Source: a virus
DNA length: 10,838 nt
Virus genome (UHGV): UHGV-0114065
Strand: one strand, 5' to 3'
The position numbers and the translations under genes are program-made. The notes below the pieces were generated by a model. The model was not told the origin of the DNA, ran no database searches, and saw only the letters and a program-made list of their open reading frames with translations. Positions 3,858 to 10,623 of this stretch are shown here, in pieces (within the stretch, counting starts at the first letter, position 1; each line of letters starts with the position of its first letter).

Positions 3858-4340
3858 TTATTTTATAGTTTTTATGAATTCTTTATTAAATCCCTTAGCT
3901 TCTCCGGGGTATCTTCCAAAGACAATTTTTATAAAAACAGAAAAAATAAAGATAGCAACGCTTAACAACAGTTGCAGTATCATTGGAACCCAAAGAACTA
4001 CAGGCTCTATATTCATGAAACCAAATATTCTTCCGGCGATCATGGCGAAGTACCACACTGTTATCAGCAAACTTAGTGGCATATGAATTACTGATATTAC
4101 CAATCCAAGAGCATCAGTAATTCTATTTTCAAATTTTTCAGGGGAAAACTTTTCTTTAAGGTAATTCAGTGCGCAGGTCTCATTCTCTGGATTTTCAGCA
4201 TTTTTCCCTATAGCAATAGAAATCTCAGATATCCTTGATTCAATTCTTTTGCGTTTAATAAAACTAGAAAAAAAGAACCACGCAATCTGCAACCCTATCC
4301 CCATAAATAGAGTTGCGGCAACTAGCACAGCGTAACTCAT
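3858..4340 (-). CDS. Small inner-membrane protein (about 160 aa, three predicted TM helices) at the position of P22 sieA; candidate superinfection-exclusion protein
   Basis: Minus-strand ORF. Start placed at the first ATG (complement of 4338-4340, [24 protein letters not shown]...) rather than the GTG at 4424 given by the ORF track. Three long hydrophobic stretches are visible by eye. The DNA is AT-rich. Gene order 16 > / < membrane gene / < unknown / < mnt mirrors P22 16-sieA-hkcC-mnt as recalled. Homology to SieA itself was not verified. Confidence 0.55.
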
Positions 4341-4569
4341 AGAATCAGACACACCAACCTCTTTAGTTTTTCTAGTTACTTTGTCACGATAGGATATGCG
4401 AATTGATAAAACTAAATTGCGCACATGATAACTCAGTAATAATTGTTAATGAAAACATGATCACCTATATTGCACAAGGCGAAACAGGAAGCATAATCTG
4501 GTTTCATGAGTGTGATCACGTTTGGGTAAATCAAAGTCAAGAGGAAATACTTGAAATTATCAAAAATAA

Positions 4570-5151
4570 CTATCTAAACGTTGCACACGACTCATCTATC
4601 CATTTTTCATAAAATTGTATACCGAGATAGGCAAGAACAGATGGATGTATATCAACAAGCTTTTCGCCAAGATGTTCTGTTGGAGGTGGATAATCTTTGC
4701 CTTGGTTTCTTACGGTTATAGGCATAGTTGTTGCTGGATGAAACTCAACTATCATAGGGTCGCCTTCGTATTTTGCTATTTTCCCTGTTGAATCAATGAT
4801 TAACTCTTTAATATAATGGCTTCTTGCTCCCGGAAATGCCCCAAGAGTAGTATAAGGAGGTTCAAGTTTTGAGATTTCCATAGTGGAATGATGATCAGCA
4901 TTTCTTGCTTGGTGAAGGTAAGCAAGTGTTTTGTCTGTTTTTCTAAGCATGAACTTTTGGTTGAAGTGGCTGCTAAATTTTCCACTAACCGGCTTTGTTG
5001 CACAGAGCAACTTACTGAAAGACTTTTCTATATGCCCAAGACATTCTCGCCAGTGCATTTCAAAATCATCATGGTTTGTAGATGATTTCATCTGCTCTAG
5101 GCACTTTTTAGCTGCGATGATTTCTTTTTTTGCTGGGTTGTAATCGATCAT
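4570..5151 (-). CDS. Hypothetical protein (193 aa), translationally coupled downstream of mnt; function unknown
   Basis: Minus-strand ORF whose ATG (complement of 5149-5151) overlaps the mnt stop codon (ATGA overlap at 5148-5151). No TM segments and no motif I can assign. AT-rich. Confidence 0.7.
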   Translation of the reverse strand: MIDYNPAKKEIIAAKKCLEQMKSSTNHDDFEMHWRECLGHIEKSFSKLLCATKPVSGKFSSHFNQKFMLRKTDKTLAYLHQARNADHHSTMEISKLEPPYTTLGAFPGARSHYIKELIIDSTGKIAKYEGDPMIVEFHPATTMPITVRNQGKDYPPPTEHLGEKLVDIHPSVLAYLGIQFYEKWIDESCATFR

Positions 5152-5402
5152 TTTGCATCCTTGCCATACATGTTTTTAAGTGTCTCAAATACCACAGACT
5201 TGAACTGTTCAGCCTGCATCTCGGCTAATCGTTCAGCTTCATTGCGATAACCTTTTACAGGAGATGGTCTCGATAGAGCATCTTGGACGATTTGCAACAA
5301 TTCTGAGTTCATTGATCTACCATTTGACTCTGCTCTGTATTTTAATTTTTCTCTTACTTCCAAAGGCATGCGGAAGTTAAAGTGCGGATCATCTCTAGCC
5401 AT
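5148..5402 (-). CDS. mnt: Mnt repressor (ribbon-helix-helix; maintenance of Pant repression in lysogens)
   Basis: 84-aa product MARDDPHFNFRMPLEVREKLKYRAESNGRSMNSELLQIVQDAL... closely matches the P22 Mnt N-terminal RHH domain as I recall it. It is divergent from arc across the operator region. GGAG lies 9 nt upstream of the ATG on the minus strand. Confidence 0.9.
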   Translation of the reverse strand: MARDDPHFNFRMPLEVREKLKYRAESNGRSMNSELLQIVQDALSRPSPVKGYRNEAERLAEMQAEQFKSVVFETLKNMYGKDAK

Positions 5403-5424
5403 GCCATCACTCCAAGTTAGTGTA

Positions 5425-5453
5425 TTGACATGATAGAAGCACTCTACTATATT
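5425..5453 (+). promoter_or_regulatory. Pant promoter (-35 TTGACA 5425-5430, 17-bp spacer, -10 TATATT 5448-5453)
   Basis: Consensus -35 and near-consensus -10 with the arc operator in the spacer, as in the P22 immI region. It drives arc-ant. Confidence 0.8.
5430..5450. promoter_or_regulatory. Arc operator (21 bp, ATGATAGAAGCACTCTACTAT)
   Basis: Exact match to the P22 Oarc sequence as recalled, with TAGA/TCTA half-sites. It lies between the -35 and -10 of both Pant and Pmnt. Confidence 0.8.
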
Positions 5454-5458
5454 CTCAA
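5430..5458 (-). promoter_or_regulatory. Pmnt promoter (minus strand: -35 TTGAGA at 5453-5458, 17-bp spacer, -10 TATCAT at 5430-5435)
   Basis: Divergent promoter overlapping Pant. The hexamers were read from the reverse complement. Arrangement is consistent with the known P22 Pant/Pmnt overlap. Confidence 0.6.
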
Positions 5459-5477
5459 TAGGTCCACCGTGGACCTA
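5459..5477. promoter_or_regulatory. Mnt operator (palindrome TAGGTCCACCGTGGACCTA)
   Basis: 19-bp near-perfect palindrome centred on one base, matching the P22 Omnt as recalled. It overlaps the predicted Pant transcription start. Confidence 0.8.
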
Positions 5478-5492
5478 TATTGTGAGGTGAAC

Positions 5493-5654
5493 ATGAAAGG
5501 AATGAGCAAAATGCCGCAGTTCAATTTGCGGTGGCCTAAAGAAGTATTGGATTTGGTACGCAAGGTGGCGGAAGAGAATGGTCGGTCTGTTAACTCTGAG
5601 ATTTATCAGAGAGTAATGGACAGCTTTAAGAAGGAAGGGCGTATTGGCGCGTAA
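5493..5654 (+). CDS. arc: Arc repressor (53 aa, ribbon-helix-helix)
   Basis: [53 protein letters not shown] differs from recalled P22 Arc at only two positions (R16K, E43D). GAGGTG RBS precedes the ATG at 5493. The longer ORF from 5430 in the track runs through the operators and is not the real start. Confidence 0.93.
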
Positions 5655-5722
5655 AGTTGAAGCCCCAACTGCGGGAACAGTCAGGGCTTCTGTTGTCAGT
5701 AAATTCGTGGAGAAAAACCAAC
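5654..5722 (-). ncRNA. sar: sar antisense RNA (about 69 nt) complementary to the arc-ant intercistronic region and ant RBS
   Basis: Extended -10 promoter on the minus strand (TGCTATACT, complement of 5729-5737) places a start near 5722, the complement of the ant ATG. The transcript would cover the ant RBS (5709-5717) and a 7-bp inverted repeat (5659-5665 / 5684-5690), ending near the arc stop. This matches the published P22 sar arrangement; the ends are inferred, not measured. Confidence 0.45.
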
Positions 5723-6625
5723 ATGAATAGTATAGCAATTTTAGAAGCAGTGAACACCTCTTACGTACCTTTCAATGGTCAGCAGATTATCACCGCCATG
5801 ACTGCCGGAGTTGCATATGTTGCGATGAAGCCAATCGTTGAAAACCTTGGAATGAGCTGGTCAACGCAGCAAACAAAACTCATGAAGCAGATTAGCAAAT
5901 TCAACTGTGTTCATATGAACATGGTTGCCGCTGATGGTAAGCTTCGTAAGCTACTCTGCCTTCCTTTGAAGAAGTTAAATGGATGGCTGTTCAGCATCAA
6001 CCCTGAGAAAGTTCGTGCTGACATCCGCGATAAACTGATTCAGTACCAGGAAGAATGCTTTACTGTGCTGCATGACTACTGGACGAAGGGAAAGGCAGAA
6101 AATGCACGTAAGAAAACATCTGTTGATGACAGGACTCCGCTTCGTGATGCTGTAAATATGCTAGTCAGCAAAAAGCATCTAATGTACCCAGAAGCTTATG
6201 CAATGATTCATCAGCGTTTCAACGTGGAAAGTATTGAAGAGCTTGATTCATCTCAGATACCGCAAGCAGTAGAGTACATCCACAGGGTAGTGCTTGAAGG
6301 CGAGTTCATCGGCAAACAAGAGAAGAAAACCAACGAGCTTTCTGCAAAAGAAGCAAACAGCCTTGTATGGCTATGGGATTATGCCAACCGCTCACAGGCA
6401 TTATTCCGCGAACTGTATCCGGCGCTGAAACAAATTCAATCGAACTATTCCGGCAGATGTCATGACTGCGGTTATGAGTTCTCCCGTATTATCGATATAG
6501 CGAGAGACGTTTTAATCAATCACACACGAGATGTTGATATTAATGAGCCAGACGGACCAACGAATCTTTCCGCATGGATGAGACTTAAGAATAAAGAATT
6601 ACCTCCTTCAGTACATAACTACTGA
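5723..6625 (+). CDS. ant: Antirepressor Ant (300 aa)
   Basis: Start placed at ATG 5723 ([21 protein letters not shown]...) with GGAGAAAAA RBS; the track ORF from 5657 is an upstream in-frame extension. Position after arc and length of 300 aa match P22 Ant. Confidence 0.88.
5729..5737 (-). promoter_or_regulatory. Psar extended -10 element (TGnTATACT on minus strand)
   Basis: Read from the reverse complement of 5729-5737, inside the first codons of ant. No good -35 is present, consistent with an extended -10 promoter. Confidence 0.45.
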
Positions 6626-8495: not shown

Positions 8496-8513
8496 GCAAT
8501 ACAGGAGAAATAA

Positions 8514-8807
8514 ATGCGAGATATTTCACCACTGCTTCATGCTGTCACCGCTTTAGCTGTTCAGGCTGCTTTTGGCCTTTCCTCACGCGATTGGATAACT
8601 GGGGGTCTGCTGGGGAGTCTTTGGTTTATCGCTCGCGAGCACACCCAGGCTGAGTATCGCTGGATTGCCCAGTTCGGCGCAGGGAAGCGCGCCAACATGC
8701 CGTGGTGGGGCGGGTTCTCCTGGCGCGCATGGAACCTTCCCAGCATGCTCGACTGGATTGTGCCGGTGGCGACCTGCGCTGCCGTTTATTTTGCCTCCAC
8801 CCTTTAA
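8514..8807 (+). CDS. Hypothetical small membrane protein (97 aa), G+C-rich cargo gene immediately downstream of the tailspike
   Basis: ATG at 8514 with AGGAG RBS 6 nt upstream. Two or three hydrophobic/Trp-rich segments by eye. Composition is visibly more G+C-rich than flanking phage genes. It sits where P22-like phages carry O-antigen conversion genes (gtr or oac). Confidence 0.6.
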   Translation: MRDISPLLHAVTALAVQAAFGLSSRDWITGGLLGSLWFIAREHTQAEYRWIAQFGAGKRANMPWWGGFSWRAWNLPSMLDWIVPVATCAAVYFASTL

Positions 8808-8863
8808 CTCCTGTCGAGCTCATTGATAGGCGCCGACACATTGATCTGCACCTCCTTTAAAAC

Positions 8864-8883
8864 TACTGTATATAAAAACAGTA
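8864..8883. promoter_or_regulatory. LexA (SOS) box TACTGTATATAAAAACAGTA
   Basis: CTGT-N8-ACAG with 18 of 20 positions matching the E. coli consensus TACTGTATATATATACAGTA. It ends 1 nt before the AAGGAG RBS (8885-8890) of the downstream gene. Confidence 0.7.
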
Positions 8884-8898
8884 AAAGGAGTGCAGGTC

Positions 8899-9138
8899 AT
8901 GCCACGCCGTTCCGACATTCACGCCGCATTTGTGGCCGCAATACAGCTAAACCCCAAGGGCTACCGGTGCTTACGCACAGAAGACTTTATCCGCGAACTG
9001 GCAAAGGTCCACTGGCATTTCAGCCGGGCCGACGCCAACGAGTGGATAGAGCGCTATCAGCCCGACTTCACCGACAAGACAACTGACGGAACCGACAATC
9101 ACTACTGGATCCTGCGCAATATGGGGAGGGTTCACTGA
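8899..9138 (+). CDS. Hypothetical small protein (79 aa), first gene of the SOS-box-controlled cassette
   Basis: ATG at 8899 with AAGGAG 8 nt upstream; the ORF track starts it at a GTG at 8890 inside the RBS. Its stop overlaps the next gene's start (TGATG at 9136-9140). No recognisable family. Confidence 0.6.
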   Translation: MPRRSDIHAAFVAAIQLNPKGYRCLRTEDFIRELAKVHWHFSRADANEWIERYQPDFTDKTTDGTDNHYWILRNMGRVH

Positions 9139-9455
9139 TGGGCTTTCCTTCACCGGCGGGCGACTACGTAGAGCAGCGGTTAACACCGGAGCGTATCTGC
9201 GGGATCGGCATGGACAGCCGCATCCTCGAAACATCATCCGGCTTTGCCGTTATCGAACCGTGCACCAGGCTGGTACAGAATCAGGTTCTGCTGATTTTAT
9301 CTGGCGGCAGAACGCAGTTTGCCAGGGTAATGGGTAGGGCATTAATCACTGATGATGGTGAAGCGATCGAAGGGGAGGAGGCGGAGGAAGTTGAGGTGCT
9401 GGGGCGCGTGACGTTCTTCATCAACAGCGCGCTACAGGATGACAGGGTGGTTTGA
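9138..9455 (+). CDS. UmuD'-like protein (degenerate S24/LexA-type peptidase fold, starts at the position of the UmuD cleavage site; catalytic Ser/Lys not evident)
   Basis: N-terminus MGFPSPAGDYVEQRL matches UmuD residues 25-38 (GFPSPAADYVEQRI), the first residues of processed UmuD'. The C-terminal pattern EVEVLGRVTFFINSA resembles the last beta-strands of UmuD/LexA. GGGGAGGG RBS 7 nt upstream. I could not find the conserved Ser-Met and Thr-Val-Lys motifs. Confidence 0.65.
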   Translation: MGFPSPAGDYVEQRLTPERICGIGMDSRILETSSGFAVIEPCTRLVQNQVLLILSGGRTQFARVMGRALITDDGEAIEGEEAEEVEVLGRVTFFINSALQDDRVV

Positions 9456-9465
9456 TTGGGTGGCA

Positions 9466-10623
9466 TTACGCCACCTTTTCATCAAGCCAGTCCGCCCACC
9501 ACTGCATCATTTCTCTGCGCTTATCGAGATACTGAGCATGGTTGTAAATCCCGCGCACAGATCCGCCGTTGGCATGTGCCAGTTGCACTTCAATAGCGTC
9601 GGCAGGCCATTCGTGCTCGTTCATAATCGTGCTGAATTCATGCCTGAATCCGTGACCGCTTTCCAGACCTTCATAGCCGATTTGTTTGATCACAAGCAAT
9701 ACCGCGTTCTCGCAGATTGGCTTTTTCTTATCATTGCGCCCGGCAAAAACAAACTCTGATACTGGTTTGGTGATTGAGCTTAGCGTAGTGAGAAGTTCAA
9801 CCACCTGGTCCGACATCGGGACCACATGAATTTTGCGTCCCTTCATCACACTGGCGTCGATGGTGATAATCCTGTTTTCAAAATCGACGTTCTTCCATTG
9901 CATGGAACGAAGCTCTTTCGTTCTTAGGGCTGTGTAGCGTAAAACTTTGGTCGCAATGAGCGATACGATACTTCCTGAAAATGTTGCCAGTGCTTTGTTG
10001 AATGCCGGGATCTGGTCTGCAGGAAGAAACGGGAAGTTCTTCTTGCGGTATCCCTTCATGGCGTCAGCAAGGTCAGGTGCCGGGTTATATTTAGCCCTAC
10101 CAGTGACAATAGCGTAACGGAAAACCTCGCCGCATCTTCTGCGGGCTTTGTTGGCTCGCTCCATTGCACCGCGATCTTCAAATCTGCGGATTACTTCCAG
10201 CAGTTGCATCGGCTCAATATCCTGAATTTCAAGGCCGCCGATGATAGGTAAAATGTCGTCATCAAACATTTTTGCAAGTTCAGTTGCATAGCCTACTGAC
10301 CAGACTTGCTTCTTGTGCTCGTACCATTCCTTGTAAATGGCGCTAAAGGAATTGTTGTTAGACGAAGCCTTTTTCGCCTTTACCGGATCGATGCCAACCG
10401 AGATGTCTTTCCTCGCAGTCCATGCTTTATCCCTTGCCTCTTGCAAAGTCATAAGCGGGTATTTTCCGACGGTCAGGATTTTCTCCTTACCGTCAATCTT
10501 GTAGCGAAGCTGCCATACCTTTTTCCCTGACACAGGGACATAAAGGTACAGGCCATTACCATCGAGAAGGCGGTATGGTTTTTCTTTCGGCTTTGCTGCT
10601 TCAATCTGCTTAACGGTGAGCAT
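9466..10623 (-). CDS. int: Tyrosine integrase, P4/IntS family (385 aa from ATG at 10623; alternative GTG start at 10659)
   Basis: N-terminus MLTVKQIEAAKPKEKPYRLLDGNGLYLYV is typical of P4-family integrases. Catalytic residues are visible (R in LRTKELR, HGFRH, Y in GIYNHAQY). It reads away from the adjacent tRNA 3' end, as expected for tRNA-targeting P4-type integrases. Confidence 0.9.
   Translation of the reverse strand: MLTVKQIEAAKPKEKPYRLLDGNGLYLYVPVSGKKVWQLRYKIDGKEKILTVGKYPLMTLQEARDKAWTARKDISVGIDPVKAKKASSNNNSFSAIYKEWYEHKKQVWSVGYATELAKMFDDDILPIIGGLEIQDIEPMQLLEVIRRFEDRGAMERANKARRRCGEVFRYAIVTGRAKYNPAPDLADAMKGYRKKNFPFLPADQIPAFNKALATFSGSIVSLIATKVLRYTALRTKELRSMQWKNVDFENRIITIDASVMKGRKIHVVPMSDQVVELLTTLSSITKPVSEFVFAGRNDKKKPICENAVLLVIKQIGYEGLESGHGFRHEFSTIMNEHEWPADAIEVQLAHANGGSVRGIYNHAQYLDKRREMMQWWADWLDEKVA

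Follow-up and report, generated by a model that had tools for sequence, protein, structure and literature searches.

What does a prophage gain from a gene that stands behind a copy of the umuDC operator and whose product starts where RecA-processed UmuD′ starts, with no protease active site? The question is raised by the viral genome UHGV-0114065, a stretch of 10,838 nucleotides (nt) whose full length is called the window below, in which an open reading frame (ORF) at 9138-9455 encodes a 105-amino-acid (aa) protein. That this ORF is the second gene of a self-contained, LexA-repressed two-gene cassette (8841-9479) lying at the end of a P22-like prophage nearest the integrase, and that its product is a miniaturised member of the HumD lineage of UmuD′ homologues, is well supported. 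As to function, we favor, at a probability of roughly 0.5, the view that this protein serves as an SOS-timed surrogate of UmuD′ docking on host UmuC.

A UmuD′-like protein encoded in pre-cleaved form

9138-9455, plus strand: second cistron, encoding the 105-aa born-cleaved, dyad-less UmuD′/HumD-like protein (homology, model and family data)
9141-9179, plus strand: N-terminal arm GFPSPAGDYVEQR, residues 2-14, equal to UmuD′ residues 25-37 (alignment with PDB UmuD/UmuD′)
9234-9242, plus strand: tight turn S33-S34-G35 in place of the 11-residue Ser60 loop of UmuD (gap in the MAFFT and hhalign alignments; AlphaFold2 (AF2) model)
9432-9452, plus strand: acidic C-terminal tail LQDDRVV, a variant of the HumD-type DDxP[VI][IMV] (comparison with HumD proteins)

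A reading made from the DNA letters alone (the sequence-only reading) had described 9138-9455 as a genetically pre-cleaved, apparently catalytically dead mimic of UmuD′, and both its coordinates and its description are correct. The product opens MGFPSPAGDYVEQR, and its start, M-GFPSPAGDYVEQR, matches UmuD after the Cys24-Gly25 autocleavage site, as had been proposed: residues 2-14 are identical at 12 of 13 positions to UmuD residues 25-37, which directly follow that site, and the DNA encoding the arm is identical to E. coli umuD at 33 of 42 positions. Among 64 diverse family members M1, G2, F3, P4, S5 and P6 are invariant, and A7, D9 and Y10 are conserved in at least 90%. The earlier claim that there is no room for the N-terminal part removed from UmuD also stands, since an in-frame TGA at 9084-9086 lies 17 codons upstream of 9138 with no start codon in between, so that a UmuD-type N-terminal arm or precursor cannot be encoded. 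The Ala/Cys-Gly cleavage site that is a hallmark of S24 proteins, following their N-terminal arm or domain, is absent from the 105-aa protein, which begins Met-Gly.

Single-sequence searches detected only about the first 20 residues of the protein, and profiles of homologues were needed for the rest. The single-sequence match to PDB UmuD covers residues 2-20, and a Pfam search gave no family match at E≤10, the gathering score of Peptidase_S24 not being reached. With a profile of 26 family sequences, hhalign aligned residues 2-97 to a UmuD/HumD profile (99% probability, E=5e-18), and the match persisted (91.6%, E=8e-7) after the N-terminal motif had been stripped from both profiles. A 64-sequence profile aligned residues 2-96 to residues 25-136 of PDB UmuD (8gmt_B, E=9e-8), and PHROG 3469, 'UmuD-like protein', gave a full-length match (residues 1-103 to profile positions 1-103 of 106, E=9.5e-46). 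The AF2 model of the protein is a beta-barrel (predicted local distance difference test score (pLDDT) 84.5; predicted template modelling score 0.71). The structural comparison with UmuD′ that had been suggested earlier was run on this model with Foldseek, which returned UmuD′ itself (1ay9_A, probability 1.00, TM score 0.60) as the top match and LexA C-terminal domains next. According to the model, therefore, the protein has the predicted beta-barrel fold of the Peptidase S24 (LexA/UmuD/cI) superfamily.

The catalytic dyad is missing from this barrel. MAFFT and hhalign agree on an 11-residue gap at exactly the site of the Ser60 loop of UmuD, and in the AF2 secondary structure a tight turn connects strands 28-32 and 35-40. 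At the Lys97 column the window protein has Ala, and the residue is variable across the family. Because the serine loop is deleted and the lysine replaced, S24 protease activity is not possible for this protein, in agreement with the sequence-only reading, which had found neither the Ser nucleophile nor the Lys general base. That reading had named two outcomes that would count against it; what we found is an S24 fold rather than a chance N-terminal motif, and no conserved catalytic Ser or Lys.

The C-terminus was compared with the HumD-type proteins of P1, P7, D6, N15 (gp26), phiKO2 (gp23) and HK639. An acidic tail is common to the HumD group (SGEFDDCPVI in P1, with the ending DDxPV[ILM]), N15 gp26, HK639 and the plasmid homologues, whereas UmuD has none. 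The window protein ends QDDRVV, retaining the acidic pair and the hydrophobic end, with the Pro replaced; its clade ends DDRVV, and the Pro is kept in most of the family. An acidic pair lies within the last nine residues in 208 of 250 family members, and 152 of the 250 end in P-(x)-hydrophobic. In the AF2 model pLDDT falls below 50 at residues 103-105. The tail pattern of HumD and the PHROG 3469-type family, an acidic pair and P-(x)-hydrophobic at the C-terminus (e.g., DDDIPIM, DDSPF and DDCPVI), resembles the C-terminal tip of SSB, DDDIPF.

A predicted SOS operon with the operator of umuDC

8841-8846, plus strand: -35-like hexamer TTGATC of a putative SOS promoter (from the sequence)
8864-8883, no strand assigned: LexA (SOS) box TACTGTATATAAAAACAGTA, overlapping the presumed -10 element (consensus match)
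8885-8890, plus strand: Shine-Dalgarno sequence AAGGAG of the first cistron, 8 nt before ATG 8899 (from the sequence)
8899-9138, plus strand: first cistron, encoding a 79-aa winged-helix partner, MPRRSDIHAAF...NMGRVH (homologue length and fold)
9123-9130, plus strand: Shine-Dalgarno sequence GGGGAGGG of the second cistron, within the end of the first and 7 nt before ATG 9138
9459-9479, no strand assigned: terminator-like hairpin GGTGGC-ATTAC-GCCACC followed by TTTT (ViennaRNA)

The control region of the cassette reproduces elements of the host mutagenesis operon; the sequence-only reading had noted neither this region nor the partner gene, nor the acidic tail of the UmuD′-like protein. The layout of the 10-mer ATTGATCTGC, a 12-nt spacer and ACTACTGTATATAAAAACAGTA is identical upstream of E. 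coli K-12 umuD, and the LexA box at 8864-8883 is identical to the K-12 umuDC box at 20 of 20 positions. No other site in the window fits the palindromic consensus with three or fewer mismatches, and none of 200 shuffles gave any such match. TTGATC also precedes the LexA box in mEp390, Flotzy, RothD and CP054718, and nearly every intact related locus has a CTG-N10-CAG box at the corresponding place. LexA boxes were likewise found at mEp390, Flotzy, RothD, a Salmonella phage-plasmid, a Phytobacter plasmid and HK639, and before P1 humD (an annotated LexA site), N15 gp26 and the Hafnia, Aeromonas and Pantoea homologues. Judged from these sites, SOS control appears to be the most conserved property of the whole lineage of HumD and 105-aa proteins.

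The partner starts at ATG 8899 and not at the mechanically listed GTG 8890; nearly all listed homologues have 79 aa. Its stop codon (TGA, 9136-9138) overlaps the ATG of the second cistron (9138-9140) in an ATGA-type coupling. Downstream, the hairpin separates the operon from the convergent integrase ORF (minus strand, ending at 9466); ViennaRNA folded 9451-9490 at -15.3 kcal/mol with the GGTGGC/GCCACC stem, which a simple hairpin scanner did not list. Both cassette genes have a ratio of nonsynonymous to synonymous substitution rates (dN/dS) of about 0.25 against the copy in E. coli strain EC31 (0.26 for the UmuD′-like gene), a value that few differences underlie, and appear from these comparisons to be under purifying selection.

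Roughly three quarters of the intact loci have the partner gene upstream of the 105-aa-type gene. It lies directly upstream, at adjacent coordinates, in at least 16 phage records, and in 45 of the 68 loci of a genome scan that sampled one genome per species (tblastn; a few more loci carry divergent copies); it also precedes a full-length HumD-like gene in about 1,000 conjugative plasmids, including IncX3 plasmids. An obligatory companion it is not, as about 10-12 intact loci carry a solo UmuD′-like gene with a LexA box about 20 nt before its own ATG. Because the box stands directly before the gene at these loci, the UmuD′-like protein probably has a function of its own. Three identities for the partner were also considered and dropped. 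ImpC is DinI-like, and the partner is a winged-helix protein of its own family and not the ImpC-like member of an impCAB-type operon; a DinI query matched only separate genes. It is not P1 Lxr, the 190-aa product of a divergent gene, and no 79-aa gene precedes humD in P1 or N15. Mimicry of the UmuC C-terminus (..LRVK) by that of the partner (..GRVH) is unsupported: the final residue is variable, and in the plasmid/Erwinia clade the protein ends NPNGG[RLF].

Distribution and integrity of the family

At 90% identity the family falls into about 1,600 clusters, and at 50% it reduces to 183 representatives; nearly all members have 100-109 aa and start M-GFPSPA. In databases they mostly bear the name 'hypothetical protein', with 'LexA family protein', 'S24/S26 family peptidase' and 'DNA polymerase V subunit UmuD' as occasional alternatives. 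No close relative of the cassette came up when phage records were searched with the region by megablast, and relatives were then sought at the protein level. In phage records the gene lies between tail-fibre or tailspike genes and int/attP, and the carriers are temperate phages of Klebsiella, Enterobacter, E. coli (mEp390 and Flotzy), Cronobacter and Erwinia. The 68 loci of the genome scan are nearly all labelled Enterobacterales; 51 are intact and several are 5′-truncated. In E. coli the cassette is rare (23 of 5,426 complete genomes) and always chromosomal, and in strain EC31 it adjoins intS and a tRNA-Arg gene.

Could the gene be a decaying remnant, a degenerate and functionless HumD copy carried along in the accessory region of the prophage? 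The 5′-truncated copies (L066, L070, L071, L074, L076 and L081-L084), the loss of the UmuD′-like gene from HK225, which kept the partner, a HumD-like sequence in two pieces in BTP1 and the rarity of the cassette in E. coli would all fit decay. However, a family of about 1,600 clusters with a near-constant length of 100-109 aa and invariant residues throughout the protein, the dN/dS of about 0.26, the confident AF2 fold and the conservation of LexA box, ribosome-binding site and translational coupling make this explanation very improbable.

Several relatives depart from the common arrangement. In HK225 (L010:1501-1800) the partner is extended to 99 aa and a DNA invertase replaces the UmuD′-like gene. 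One database protein (P0172, 187 aa) is a fusion of the partner with the UmuD′-like protein. Another (P0148, 141 aa) joins a UmuD-type arm and cleavage site (FIRPAELREI..LFSDSMQC/GF) to the dyad-less family body, which makes it an ancestral form still uncleaved or else the product of recombination of a host umuD with the prophage gene across their shared arm-coding DNA. A divergent DinI-like gene adjoins the cassette in mEp390, Flotzy and HK225, forming an SOS/RecA-related accessory island by attP, and in 7 of the 68 genome loci such a gene is found no more than 3 kb away from the UmuD′-like gene. A hidden polymerase downstream of the gene in relatives was considered and discarded, as the 348-aa ORF that follows it in Klebsiella phage RothD is a Gly_rich_2 protein and not a Y-family polymerase. 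PADLOC gave no meaningful defence-system match.

Relation to HumD and other known systems

A genetically pre-cleaved UmuD′ is an established idea and not a new one, embodied in phage P1 HumD and the NCBIfam model NF051876. In the annotation of the P1 record, HumD 'functionally complements E. coli UmuD′' (McLenigan et al. 1999, as cited in PMC11541004), and P1 HumD is the one member of the group for which substitution for UmuD′ in SOS mutagenesis with UmuC is known. The family itself is already catalogued as PHROG 3469. The new elements are a large, compact clade from which the catalytic loop has been removed, a conserved winged-helix protein as partner, and the exact reuse of the umuDC operator. 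Sequence comparison gives good support to placing the window protein as a shortened, much-diverged and uncharacterised branch of the HumD lineage. A 126-aa plasmid protein annotated as 'S24 family peptidase', for example, begins MGFPSPA and shares 46% identity with P1 HumD, and in tblastn it matches members of the present family along the whole of their length (28-33% identity, E down to 4e-8).

Like P1 HumD, N15 gp26, phiKO2 gp23 and HK639 gp28, the window protein starts M-GFPSPA, has no UmuD-type precursor arm and adopts, by its model, an S24 fold. The HumD group has a LexA box 14-20 nt before the gene, and the window cassette too has one upstream; in both groups the gene follows the tail-fibre genes of temperate phages and lies next to int/attP or par. 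The differences are in the body of the protein. HumD proteins have 125-130 aa and a segment equivalent to the Ser60 loop, whereas the 105-aa protein lacks that segment; P1 HumD retains both Ser and Lys, whereas the window protein retains neither; and an acidic DGEAIEGE loop is specific to the family and not found in HumD. The dyad Ser and/or Lys has also been lost in HK639, Hafnia yong1, Aeromonas pAEv1818, Pantoea G19 and the plasmid HumD-like proteins, and such loss across HumD relatives is to be expected because cleavage is no longer needed. Nohmi and colleagues are said to have found in 1988 that UmuD′ with S60A still supports mutagenesis.

E. coli UmuD′ shares with the cassette 12 of 13 arm residues, the best structural match, and the operator and -35 of umuDC. 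It is, however, autocleaved from a 139-aa precursor, has a Ser60-Lys97 dyad and is encoded with umuC, whereas the window cassette has no precursor, no dyad and no polymerase gene. The gene order of the cassette recurs on IncX3 pNDM-type plasmids and on Phytobacter pMRY16-398_1, where a 79-aa partner (38% identical) is followed by an MGFPSPA protein, with a LexA box upstream in the Phytobacter case. The plasmid HumD-like proteins have Met in place of Lys97 and differ from the window protein in keeping a full-length body (118-126 aa) that annotation pipelines still recognise as S24. In IncX3 plasmid pNDM-T16 (L005 1679-4337) ISKox3 is inserted in the LexA box of the operon, leaving half of the box; since ISKox3 splits the box, SOS control is probably lost in IncX3 NDM plasmids. 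On the other side IS26 abuts the 3′ end of the HumD-like gene, and the 118-aa product lacks the acidic tail. In Salmonella prophage BTP1 (L009 2501-2870) a HumD-like match, not annotated on its strand, lies in two pieces between gtrA and int, which suggests, from the sequence, a frameshifted pseudogene.

Unlike the window protein, the C-terminal domain of the phage 186 CI repressor belongs to a DNA-binding protein, lacks an arm of the UmuD type and is not under LexA control. DinI/ImpC-type and Gifsy-type proteins are, like the cassette products, small, SOS-induced and encoded in prophage accessory regions with their own LexA box, but have no kinship in sequence or fold to the winged-helix partner or the S24-barrel protein. 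Phage 434 Hex, considered as a precedent for an S24-like inhibitor, proved unrelated.

Function: a proposed SOS-timed UmuD′ surrogate and its rivals

The mechanism that we favor would begin with DNA damage and the cleavage of LexA, which would derepress the cassette together with host umuDC because the operator is identical at both. Removal of Met1 ahead of Gly2, as expected from the methionine-aminopeptidase rule, would leave the N-terminus Gly-Phe-Pro-Ser-Pro-Ala of RecA-processed UmuD′. The 105-aa protein would then dimerise through its retained C-terminal strand and dock the invariant arm at its N-terminus onto host UmuC in the manner of UmuD′ in DNA polymerase V (Pol V), and an induced prophage would gain UmuD′ function while skipping the slow RecA-dependent cleavage of UmuD (e.g., for lesion bypass in phage or host DNA). 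The partner may be a translationally coupled accessory subunit or regulator.

Docking of the arm on UmuC is suggested by an AlphaFold model of Pol V, in which one UmuD′ arm docks near the UmuC active site, and by the findings that armless UmuD′ is non-mutable and that a change of the first arm residue alters mutagenesis (PMC11791011). Cleavage of host UmuD comes late in the SOS response (PMC9926225), so that a prophage induced by damage would stand to gain from immediate UmuD′ function. The sequence-only reading had offered UmuD/UmuD′, UmuC and RecA filaments as binding partners; by our analysis UmuC, approached through the invariant arm, is probably the most likely of these. RecA, by contrast, would be the least likely in the UmuD manner, in the filament groove, because the contact residues are not conserved: of the UmuD residues that contact RecA (Y52, D91, E93 and F18; PMC9926225), Y52 is replaced by R at a position variable in the family, D91 by G and E93 by R, and F18 is absent. 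D91 and E93 make up the acidic patch through which UmuD touches RecA, and of its hydrophobic pocket for RecA (Y52, V54, F94 and F18) only the V54 position stays hydrophobic.

These substitutions bear on a second explanation, in which the protein modulates activated RecA or S24 proteins, its non-cleavable body lying in the RecA groove or on the C-terminal domain of LexA or a phage repressor and tuning SOS or induction, possibly with the winged-helix partner as a split LexA-like DNA-binding regulator or antirepressor. LexA-controlled phage antirepressors provide precedents for such a pair (PMC3121763). The loss of the RecA contacts is against it, as is the fact that conservation peaks in the arm, a part peculiar to the UmuD subfamily whose modelled role is at UmuC. 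Moreover, the partner is missing from about a quarter of the intact loci, its fold matches are generic, with the LexA N-terminal domain outside the top 60, and this P22-like phage already has its own Mnt/Arc/Ant system. We consider this explanation distinctly unlikely.

Four observations weigh against a simple UmuD′ surrogate. In the Pol V model the UmuC C-terminus is held by UmuD S60, E93, T95 and K97 (PMC11791011), and in the 105-aa protein S60 is deleted and E93, T95 and K97 are replaced by R, Q and A; with this pocket deleted or replaced, the interface with UmuC cannot be identical to that of UmuD′. A near-invariant acidic loop of the family, I-T-x-D-G-E-A-I-E-G-E, has no counterpart in UmuD or HumD and therefore implies a surface with a different or additional ligand. 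The NF051876 model scores only 29.7 bits, over residues 1-21, against a curated equivalog cut-off of 120 bits. Finally, the 79-aa partner that usually precedes the window-type gene is one that P1 HumD and N15 gp26 do without.

The lost UmuC pocket and the family's own acidic loop make a serious rival of the opposite activity, a decoy or inhibitor of Pol V. With its arm kept and its UmuC pocket lost, and perhaps still able to heterodimerise with UmuD or UmuD′, the protein could form dead-end complexes and so restrain host mutagenic synthesis during SOS, which would shield the prophage genome from Pol V mutagenesis or alter the UmuD2C checkpoint. Co-induction with umuDC through an identical operator suits a stoichiometric antagonist as well as an activator, and the DinI-like neighbours in mEp390, Flotzy and HK225 and among the genome loci would be in keeping with it. 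DinI is a known damper of UmuD processing. On the other hand, the P1 record describes P1 HumD, the nearest relative with a characterised function, as an activator, and the other dyad-less HumD relatives keep a full-length body, so that loss of the dyad alone does not imply loss of function. On this evidence an inhibitor of Pol V seems unlikely.

A further reading is a two-protein, SOS-timed device that is not a Pol V activator, in which the inert UmuD′ body captures UmuC or another replication or repair protein. Arm, acidic loop and SSB-tip-like tail would provide the contacts and the winged-helix protein the control or the complex, yielding a mutasome antagonist, a re-targeting factor or a split LexA-like regulator. 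We regard this, in all its forms, as tentative and somewhat unlikely.

Pol V is normally delayed because UmuD first needs cleavage on RecA filaments, and mobile elements with a ready-made UmuD′ could shift both the timing and the amount of mutagenic synthesis after antibiotic or ultraviolet stress. The clade is spread widely through the prophages of Klebsiella, Enterobacter, Citrobacter, Leclercia and E. coli, with a sister form on IncX3 carbapenemase plasmids. Exact reuse of the umuDC operator shows a way for a prophage to tie a gene to one particular stage of its host's SOS programme, and a natural minimal UmuD′ (arm, barrel core and C-terminal strand, with no protease loop) would be a tool for defining what UmuC activation requires. 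Were Pol V blocked instead, the protein would be a new kind of phage-encoded anti-mutator.

Prophage surroundings

The window contains a full P22-type immI region at 5148-6625, with an Mnt-like protein (84 aa, minus strand), an Arc-like protein (74 aa) and a P22_AR antirepressor (322 aa); because this region is complete, the prophage already has an antirepressor system apart from the SOS cassette. Between a P22 gene-16-like ORF and mnt lie two minus-strand ORFs, 3858-4424 (188 aa, hydrophobic and membrane-like) and 4570-5151 (193 aa), neither of which has a Pfam match. They occupy the part of the window with the lowest guanine plus cytosine (GC) content (36-38% versus 45-55%), and P22 carries sieA at the equivalent position; the two ORFs could be superinfection-exclusion or defence cargo.

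Between the tailspike gene and the SOS cassette, a plus-strand ORF at 8514-8807 encodes a hydrophobic, membrane-like protein of 97 aa (PHROG 1443), with a terminator-like hairpin (8764-8784) at its 3′ end. The GC content of 8501-9500, which includes the SOS cassette, is 54-57%, versus 36-50% in the rest of this P22-like prophage end, an excess in keeping with a moron gained by horizontal transfer, perhaps from an Enterobacter or Klebsiella background of higher GC content.

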